NCBI GenBank assembly: GCA_963719515.1
Contig: CAVRCJ010000003.1
Span: 296,144 to 360,143, forward strand
Length of the DNA: 64,000 nucleotides
Direction: 5' to 3'
DNA from: an uncultured cyanobacterium
GTDB taxonomy: Bacteria; Cyanobacteriota; Cyanobacteriia; CAKZMO01
The position numbers and the translations under genes were made by a program. Positions 45,841 to 46,365 of the stretch are shown here, piece by piece. Every line of letters starts with the position of its first letter. Within the stretch, counting starts at the first letter, position 1. Below the pieces are notes generated by a model. It was not told the origin of the DNA. It ran no database searches and saw nothing but the letters and a program-made list of their open reading frames with translations.

Positions 45841-46365
45841 TTAGTAGCGACCGAAGGGACCGCCGGGCTCTTCTTCGCCCACGGCCAGGGTGGTGACGGG
45901 ACTCTCTTCCCCCAGCGCTAGGGTCGTGAAGTCCTCTTCTCCCAAGGCACGGGTAGAGGCCACTGGACCTTCTTCCCCCAGGGCGCGGGTAGAGACTACC
46001 GGATCCTCTTCGCCTAGAGCCAGGGTAGTGATCGGCGCTGGGTCAGCGGATGCCGTTCTAAATTCAGAGGCGTGAACCGTAAGTGAATTGGTCCGTGCGG
46101 TGACAATGACGGCGTCTGCGCCGTTATCCGGGGTGATGCTGATGGAGGCAGAAATGGGGGACAGCACCTGGGGAACGATGTCCGTGGGCCGGTCGGCGTC
46201 AAAGCTAAATTCGAGAACGGCATCTCCGGGGGTGGGGTCGGCGGAGTTGTCGAGCCGAGGGTTGGTCCAGCCGGGGGTGGCGGCGAGCCCAGAGGCCTGG
46301 ATGCAAAGCATTGGAGGTTCGCCGTGCTTGATGACGGTGACTTGGGTGACCTGGAGAATTTTCAT
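45841..46365 (-). CDS. Candidate graspetide precursor peptide with ~110-aa leader and five tandem core repeats T(T/R)LALGEE(D/G/S)P
   Basis: C-terminus ...PAPI-TTLALGEEDPVVS-TRALGEEGPVAS-TRALGEEDF-TTLALGEESPV-TTLAVGEEEPGGPFGRY*; matches the plesiocin-group TTxxxxEE core motif; the repeats are visible as ~36-bp tandem DNA repeats. Confidence 0.55.
   Translation of the reverse strand: MKILQVTQVTVIKHGEPPMLCIQASGLAATPGWTNPRLDNSADPTPGDAVLEFSFDADRPTDIVPQVLSPISASISITPDNGADAVIVTARTNSLTVHASEFRTASADPAPITTLALGEEDPVVSTRALGEEGPVASTRALGEEDFTTLALGEESPVTTLAVGEEEPGGPFGRY

Follow-up and report, generated by a model that had tools for sequence, protein, structure and literature searches.

Short precursors, and ligases recognized by existing models of the Pfam/TIGRFAM type, have been the focus of genome mining for graspetides. 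Among described systems, the closest to the locus reported here is that of plesiocin from Plesiocystis pacifica, in which a single ATP-grasp ligase, PsnB, acts on the tandem cores of the precursor PsnA2; each core has the form TTxxxxEE with an AIGEE stretch and receives two nested Thr-Glu esters, the inner ring being formed first (PsnB preprint). PsnA2 has a short leader with an LFIEDL motif that binds a hydrophobic pocket of PsnB, and one residue of each core sets protease specificity, as in the variant Psn-LLLR, which acquires trypsin inhibition (PMC10125368). Comparable tandem cores, TT[LKQ]A[LV]GEE with ST-K variants, occur in the classical cyanobacterial group 2 precursors of cluster434 (Makarova et al. 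2022) and in RcpA/RapA (Rheinheimera), which come from cyanobacteria and proteobacteria. We analyzed a stretch of 64,000 nucleotides (hereafter the window) from a contig of an uncultured cyanobacterium, in which an open reading frame (ORF) on the minus strand is followed, in the same frame, by a gene for an ATP-grasp ligase. An initial annotation of the window had seen here a graspetide-type precursor beside its ligase, and this view is borne out by the distance between the genes (15 nt), by the matches of the ligase to TIGR04187 and PsnB and by its structural similarity to PsnB in Foldseek comparisons. We propose, with a probability of about 70%, a minimal graspetide cassette of two genes and of plesiocin-like (group 2-type) character, for which the ORF supplies the substrate protein. 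The locus shares with PsnA2/PsnB 1) tandem TTxxxxEE cores with the A-hydrophobic-G-E-E stretch; 2) a single ATP-grasp ligase with equivalents of the catalytic Arg213 and the D(F/W)R loop; and 3) a multi-core array with a per-core residue of the kind that sets protease specificity. Unlike PsnA2/PsnB, it lacks the LFIEDL motif in the precursor, has all seven pocket contact residues (7/7) of the ligase replaced, and possesses an N-terminal domain of 103 aa that is predicted to fold, as well as a PFG tail that is invariant at the C-terminus. Judged by sequence, the window system has the core motif and catalytic residues of group 2, but not the leader and pocket of group 2a. The cluster434 and RcpA/RapA precursors differ in having short HPF[DS]L leaders of their own that end in GG, often together with a peptidase-containing transporter, and in having neither a beta-sandwich domain nor a PFG tail. 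What sets the locus apart within the graspetide class is confined to the fusion with the domain and to the tail.

The full precursor, MKILQVTQVTVIKHGEPPMLCIQASGLAATPGWTNPRLDNSADPTPGDAVLEFSFDADRPTDIVPQVLSPISASISITPDNGADAVIVTARTNSLTVHASEFRTASADPAPI-TTLALGEE-DPVV-STRALGEE-GPVA-STRALGEE-DF-TTLALGEE-SPV-TTLAVGEE-EPGGPFGRY, comprises in order a predicted autonomous beta-sandwich (residues 1-103), a linker rich in Pro, the cores (five units of the form [T/S]-T-x-A-hydrophobic-G-E-E) and a P-F-G-R-Y end (Table 1). The N-terminal part before core 1 amounts to 112 residues and includes LEFSFDADRP, in agreement with the ~110 aa first noted; the span then given for this architecture, 45841-46023, covers just the cores, tail and stop codon and clips core 1, the architecture described being that of the whole ORF. 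An exact copy of the ORF is on record in public assemblies, and the nearest relatives are Leptothoe-like and other marine filamentous cyanobacteria. The 169 precursor homologues recovered at E <1e-3 belong to cyanobacteria, Acidobacteriota, Alphaproteobacteria, Planctomycetota and many metagenomes, and share a common start (MK[IV][FL]) and a common C-terminal end, which indicates that the ORF is not a fragment of a larger protein. Two doubts raised at the outset, that the ORF might be the C-terminal part of a longer structural protein and that its repeats might not be conserved among relatives, do not apply, as both the ORF boundaries and, at the protein level, the repeats are conserved.

Each of the five [T/S]TxAxGEE units combines hydroxyl donors with Glu acceptors, as expected of graspetide cores (hydroxyl or amine donors, Asp or Glu acceptors); three of the five match the group 2 motif TTxxxxEE exactly and the remaining two are STxxxxEE. 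No other ORF of the window contains two or more such motifs, and the core array is hence not a chance occurrence. At the DNA level the array forms imperfect tandem repeats with a period of 33/36 bp and 69-77% matches in Tandem Repeats Finder, in units of 36, 36, 30 and 33 nt with spacers of 2-4 residues between cores, much as the ~36-bp repeats first noted. Cores of identical peptide sequence differ by synonymous changes only (core 4 from core 1 at 5/24 nt, core 3 from core 2 at 4/24 nt); the repeats are therefore old and held constant at the protein level rather than being recent DNA duplicates. In relatives, where the core copy number ranges from 3 to 16 and the Okeania array (L001) consists of 7.5 copies of a 36-bp unit at 95% identity, unit duplication is ongoing, and the evolution by unit duplication that had been surmised is thereby supported. 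We surveyed 854 cores from 120 homologues using the pattern xxxxxGE[E/D], in which G6 and E7 are fixed by the search itself. Position 1 is T in 85%, S in 9.6% and K in 3%; position 2 is T in 97%; position 3 is L in 47%, M in 12%, R in 12%, F in 8% and Q in 5.5%, followed by Y, K and others; position 4 is A in 74%; position 5 is L, V, I or F; and positions 6-8 are G-E-E, with E in 98% and D in 2% at position 8. A precursor with the same type of N-terminal domain, P0156, carries repeats of EGKTPVQFEE or EGKTPLIFEE instead of TTxAxGEE; its Lys-Thr donors and F-E-E acceptors may reflect a different, possibly lactam-containing, ring chemistry within the same ligase family.

The 297-aa ligase has no match in Pfam. 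In NCBIfam it matches TIGR04187 (E 1.7e-21) and also the MvdD, MvdC and grasp-with-spasm models, in all cases below the curated cutoffs. Its best relative of solved structure is the plesiocin macrocyclase PsnB (7drm, E 5e-12), with which it shares ~20-24% identity. An AlphaFold2 (AF2) model of the ligase, with a predicted local distance difference test (pLDDT) score of 91.6, retrieved PsnB as all of the top 14 Foldseek hits in the PDB at template-modelling scores of 0.68-0.73, followed by PruB, MdnC, CdnC and AMdnB and only then by LysX and RimK. R191 aligns with the catalytic R213 of PsnB, and D210-Y211-R212 with the D(F/W)R loop, both being invariant in 50 homologues; the phmmer alignment with PsnB begins at PsnB residue 119, and Arg101, which contacts the second Glu, lies outside it. 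In the leader pocket, the PsnB residues Y171, I193, L196, V201, F203, R192 and R181 correspond to A, R, C, A, V, P and Y, respectively. The clade to which this ligase belongs has more than 400 members at E <1e-10 and no precomputed Pfam domain, and its members are labelled 'hypothetical', 'ATP-grasp domain-containing' or 'RimK-type' in the sources. The microviridin (group 1) motifs TxKxPSDx(D/E)(D/E) and PFFARFL are absent from the precursor ORF, and the MvdC/MvdD models score far below their cutoffs.

Precursor and ligase are the only genes conserved across 12 cyanobacterial genome loci (Okeania, Symploca, Moorena, Trichodesmium), which were found through the ligase; the precursors at these loci have the same N-terminal domain and 10-16 cores, and end just before the ligase. 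In a set of 14 genome loci, too, no pair other than precursor and ligase is conserved. The adjacency of the two genes is kept at all loci examined, including distant ones, and the pair is conserved across phyla. One direct family member with the same domain, cores and tail, EGJ32583.1 of Moorea producens 3L (the precursor of L006), is already catalogued by Makarova et al. 2022, whose supplement lists it as the singleton precursor 'cluster10071'; searches of the main text of that paper found no mention of it, and we found no analysis of the domain, tail or distribution of this protein. Literature beyond Lee et al. 2020 and Ramesh et al. 2021 yielded no description of the domain, the domain family, module swapping or a C-terminal tail. 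No family member figures among the entries listed in the available part of the RODEO graspetide dataset (PMC13097080), and RODEO groups 34 and 35 ('long repeat precursors') consist of unrelated sequences.

Residues 1-100 of the precursor are predicted by AF2 to be folded, with pLDDT block means of 91-98 and strands at residues 5-14, 19-28, 34-39, 50-58, 69-77, 85-89 and 94-98, and the core region to be disordered (pLDDT ~50). The domain has no match in Pfam, NCBIfam or PDB sequences. A domain-only profile searched against 1.84 billion representatives detected 1549 proteins at E <1e-3, of which 641 are at E <1e-10; the top matches are lipoproteins that carry 2-5 tandem copies but lack cores, and the rest include stand-alone proteins of ~100 aa. 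The core-less members share GW[TS]xPxL and DGIYEFxFxAxPP, and the core-less lipoproteins have DGIYEFTFYATPP as the equivalent of LEFSFDADRP. Hence LEFSFDADRP, which had initially been placed in the predicted leader, is a hallmark of the domain family and not a ligase-specific leader motif. The lipoproteins P0122-P0129 and P0249 combine lipobox signal peptides with 2-5 tandem copies of the window domain, with no graspetide cores. A partner-protein role for the stand-alone domain was considered and rejected, as the one stand-alone copy with good context, P0241, is not adjacent to any ATP-grasp gene. Kinship with PrcB_C was likewise rejected: the window protein and 62 relatives have no Pfam match to PrcB_C (PF14343), and hhalign comparisons with two PrcB_C-bearing precursors were not significant (probability 0.3% for the window-type domain, here type A, and 5% for the type B domain described below). 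Of these two precursors, P0081 passes the PF14343 curated cutoff (34.3 vs 24 bits) and P0109 is a weak match below it (15.9 bits); a word-indexed search with the P0081 domain found no match, and a G-x-x-P-T-x-G-[YW] ... P-x-G-x-x-x-Q-V-x-T pattern shared with them is only a hint of relationship.

The N-termini of precursors that stand beside orthologous ligases differ widely. The ligases at the cyanobacterial genome loci L001-L011 are 60-62% identical to that of the window and are paired with type A precursors, as is a Rhizobium ligase (L017) at 35% identity. Two ligases at 42% identity adjoin precursors with, respectively, a related 'type B' domain (L015; hhalign probability 94%, E 1e-7) and a PrcB_C-type domain (L023, whose relative P0081 is the one that passes the PF14343 cutoff), and at L012, L016, L021 and L022, where the ligases are 40-45% identical to that of the window, the precursor has no N-terminal domain. 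The ligases at all these loci are colinear along their entire length, and in a neighbour-joining tree of the ligases the N-terminus types are interspersed, with the domain-less L012 as sister to the cyanobacterial clade. We also fetched 80 metagenomic loci with a ligase profile, 61 of which had enough upstream sequence to be judged: a type A domain is present in only nine of the 61, and in the majority core 1 lies within ~40 residues of the first Met. The occurrence of domain-less or other-domain precursors beside ligases of 35-62% identity argues that the domain is dispensable across the ligase family, and we infer that it is a lineage-specific fusion and not a general ligase-recognition element. 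The earlier suggestion of an unusually long leader forming a folded recognition domain thus stands as regards the length and the predicted fold (pLDDT >90 over residues 1-100), but not as regards recognition. More distant still, P0107 (L024:3501-5398, on a Planctomycetota-type metagenome contig) is a multicore [ST]Txx..GEE precursor with the Tat-like N-terminus RRDFLRRAFMLGLSTSAAAVLF, with neither a beta-sandwich nor a PFG tail, next to a ligase of 27% identity (E 5e-35); its Tat-like signal hints that some products are exported after modification.

Apart from the cores, all precursor types have a single feature in common, a PFG tail at a fixed position at the C-terminus. In 110 homologues with at least three cores, P occupies position -5 in 92, F position -4 in 98 and G position -3 in 97, the last residue varying between F, Y and R; elsewhere in these proteins PFG occurs 18 times in 26,345 residues. 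An ORF ending in [PAS][FWL][GSE]xx lies just upstream of the ligase at 54 of the 61 judged metagenomic loci, whatever its N-terminus. In soil metagenomes (L037, L038, L045, L056, L063, L070 and L078), short precursors upstream of orthologous ligases have degenerate, Gly-less cores, e.g. ITTFPLIEEH, TTMPLFEEH and TTVPPEEI, and yet keep a GPFG[AST][YF] tail, so that the tail is here more conserved than the core motif. A comparable motif is known from ThfA/ThfB (graspimiditide, fuscimiditide, group 13), where recognition of the ThfA leader depends chiefly on the tetrapeptide RPFG, a motif that retains its function when moved C-terminal to the core (PMC13003496). The two systems differ in that the natural RPFG resides in an unstructured N-terminal leader of 67 aa, and in their cores, ring topology and aspartimide tailoring; the portion of that paper available to us mentions no natural C-terminal position of RPFG in graspimiditides. 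Being the one feature outside the cores that these precursor types share, the PFG tail is our leading candidate for the ligase-recognition element, a natural follower to which the beta-sandwich would be an accessory fusion, and we advance this assignment tentatively, at slightly less than even odds. Many homologues (e.g. P0011, P0027, P0044-P0047) have a further conserved motif, T[DN]PR[VL]DDP, after the last cores and before the PFG tail; it is missing from the window precursor (45844-45870).

A possible, though doubtful, extension of this assignment is that the system is follower-guided and modifies a protein rather than a peptide, the beta-sandwich being no leader at all but a functional module kept in a multivalent, dual-specificity protease inhibitor of ~18 kDa. 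The PFGx[F/Y/R] end would then recruit the ligase and the domain would be a targeting, oligomerisation or protease-binding module, a division of roles that we hold with equal reserve. We are similarly hesitant about the evolutionary corollary, that lineages have swapped in type A, type B or PrcB_C modules or a Tat signal. In 90 family members the linker between domain and cores is 4-34 aa long (median 10) and composed largely of P, A and G; the domain-core junction shows no conserved cleavage motif, GG, GA or GS being found in only 23 of the 90. Together with the lack of any transporter or protease gene in the cassette or among the flanking genes, this suggests that the domain may stay part of the product; removal by host proteases is also possible.

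Such removal is central to a contrary interpretation, which we regard as unlikely, wherein the beta-sandwich is a structured, protein-like leader, analogous to NHLP/Nif11 leaders, that docks on the ligase of this lineage through a protein-protein interface and is later cut off by a host protease, the PFG tail having another role. Among precursors from cyanobacteria the domain shows strong conservation (50-80% identity) and is always N-terminal to the cores, long structured leaders are established in other classes of peptides that are made on the ribosome and modified after translation (RiPPs) (PMC12537861, PMC12455567, PMC2887384), and many graspetide clusters without a protease of their own may use host proteases (bioRxiv 10.1101/2023.06.21.545981). 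However, the precursors that belong to orthologous ligases may lack the domain or have unrelated ones in its place, and a short precursor accompanies the ligase of L012 (45-46% identity to the window ligase), which of the ligases compared stands nearest to the cyanobacterial clade. Moreover, the motifs of the domain are shared by family members that lack both cores and a nearby ligase, and the junction lacks a conserved cleavage motif. The NHLP and Nif11 leaders, which are common in cyanobacteria, resemble the window precursor in that a long structured N-terminus from a stand-alone family is fused to RiPP cores, but they differ in fold, homology and enzymes, and NHLP leaders end in GG and are paired with peptidase-containing transporters. 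In the window system there is no Pfam or NCBIfam match to these leaders, no conserved GG in the linkers and no peptidase-containing transporter nearby.

Under the preferred plesiocin-like reading, and by analogy with PsnB/PsnA2, the ligase would phosphorylate both Glu side chains of each core and form two nested omega-ester rings, an inner one from the Thr at position 2 to the first Glu and an outer one from the Thr or Ser at position 1 to the second Glu. The product would have up to 10 esters (-180 Da) in five hairpin-like bicyclic units and would act as a multivalent serine-protease inhibitor, with position 3 as the probable specificity residue: Leu units would be directed at chymotrypsin-, elastase- or subtilisin-like targets and Arg units at trypsin-like targets. 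The residues at position 3 of cores 1-5 are L, R, R, L and L, a pattern that looks like a natural dual-specificity array. Position 3 mixes basic and hydrophobic residues in 61 of the 110 proteins with at least three cores, and is uniform in only four.

The initial annotation had instead envisaged a mixture of bicyclic (TT..EE) and monocyclic (xT..EE) units, the ligase using Thr only as nucleophile, which we consider quite unlikely. Of the three two-Thr and two one-Thr cores on which it was based, the former are as described and the latter are STRALGEE units, with Ser and not a non-nucleophile at position 1. Within the family, this position is T or S in 95% of the 854 cores and T, S or K in 98%. 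The group 2 precursor RcpA does give four to five esters from TTxxxxEE, TTxxxED and VTxxxxED motifs (PMC11626197), in keeping with mixed rings, and that the window ligase accepts Ser is an assumption by analogy. Against this, Ser is an accepted graspetide donor (PsnB preprint), and as the position-1 Ser keeps the hydroxyl, five bicyclic units are the more likely outcome; all five units are probably bicyclic. Family-wide comparison also ties Ser at position 1 to Arg at position 3 (48/82 S-cores vs 53/725 T-cores; Fisher p = 3e-27, phylogeny not corrected for). The STR units are by this measure a conserved core subtype, and the linkage argues for selection on the position-1 hydroxyl. The core alignment thus places the real heterogeneity of the array in the hypervariable position 3 (L/R), not in the number of Thr residues. 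It is very improbable that the ligase acts, instead of or besides on the cores, on the C-terminus in the manner of RimK or LysX (by residue addition or a side-chain link at the PFGxY carboxylate), with the repeats as a structural low-complexity region. In favour of this reading, the spacing of the tail from the C-terminus is exactly kept in 97 of 110 proteins, LysX, ArgX and RimK follow directly behind the graspetide synthetases in structural similarity, and some sources label homologues RimK-type. Against it, all top structure and sequence matches are graspetide macrocyclases; the cores, which are subject to purifying selection, follow the plesiocin motif at almost every residue; and the proteins end in F, Y or R but in no case in Glu, as is typical of RimK or LysW substrates.

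Several points weigh against the plesiocin-like interpretation or parts of it. That esters form, how the rings are arranged, that Ser is accepted and that the product acts as an inhibitor are all carried over from characterized systems by analogy. The ligase lies under the curated cutoffs of all NCBIfam graspetide models and outside Pfam, and the cassette has no transporter or protease that would point to the final form and location of the product. Position 3 is presumably the counterpart of the plesiocin specificity residue, a correspondence we draw from its hypervariability and the naming of the LLLR variant rather than from sequence; a sequence search of the core region against PDB chains, seeking the PsnA2 peptide, gave no match, and the mapping is for this reason conjectural. 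Since PsnB makes contact with the Glu residues of the cores as well, it could be the cores that drive recognition, and the PFG tail could have its role in export, in stability or in another reaction.

The ligase clade, for which there is no Pfam match, may be under-counted in graspetide catalogues, and mining seeded from Pfam may miss its members. Should the PFG tail prove to be what the ligase recognizes, the recently engineered leader-to-follower design would have a counterpart in nature, and the tail would be a very short portable tag for the enzymatic cyclisation of peptides or proteins. A folded domain on a multivalent inhibitor array, exchanged between lineages, would show RiPP cores recombining with protein modules, and the natural mix of L and R at position 3 predicts a dual-specificity protease inhibitor. 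The beta-sandwich family, with 1549 representatives and no name, deserves a family definition.

Table 1. Coordinates in the window of the precursor, its parts, the ligase gene and the region upstream
Feature	Position	Strand	Remarks
Precursor ORF	45841..46365	-	174 aa + stop codon (TAA 45841-45843); from ORF list
N-terminal domain, residues 1-103	46057..46365	-	predicted 7-strand all-beta sandwich; GWTNPRLD at residues 32-39, LEFSFDADRP at residues 51-60
Linker TASADPAPI, residues 104-112	46030..46056	-	Pro/Ala-rich; pLDDT drop
Core 1 TTLALGEE, residues 113-120	46006..46029	-	
Core 2 STRALGEE, residues 125-132	45970..45993	-	
Core 3 STRALGEE, residues 137-144	45934..45957	-	
Core 4 TTLALGEE, residues 147-154	45904..45927	-	
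Core 5 TTLAVGEE, residues 158-165	45871..45894	-	
C-terminal tail EPGGPFGRY, residues 166-174	45844..45870	-	PFGRY at 45844-45858; candidate 'follower' element
Imperfect tandem DNA repeats encoding cores	45864..46028	.	Tandem Repeats Finder, period 33/36 bp
ATP-grasp graspetide synthetase (predicted), 297 aa	44932..45825	-	GTG start, same frame, 15 nt past precursor stop codon
Upstream intergenic region of cassette	46366..46630	-	between precursor start (46365) and stop codon of MscS-family gene (46631)

The cassette is flanked by genes for a hybrid response regulator, an MscS-family channel and QueA. The regulator, encoded downstream (42795-44717, minus strand), is a 640-aa protein with a receiver, an OmpR-type DNA-binding domain, an Hpt domain and a second receiver; we found no evidence linking it to the cassette, and it is not conserved beside the cassette at the other loci. 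A sigma-70 scan of the minus strand of the upstream intergenic region identified no promoter. The same region contains, downstream of the MscS-family gene, a GC-rich hairpin with a perfect 15-bp stem (46510-46542), which is probably the terminator of that gene; as an upstream terminator, it would make the precursor-ligase pair its own transcription unit.

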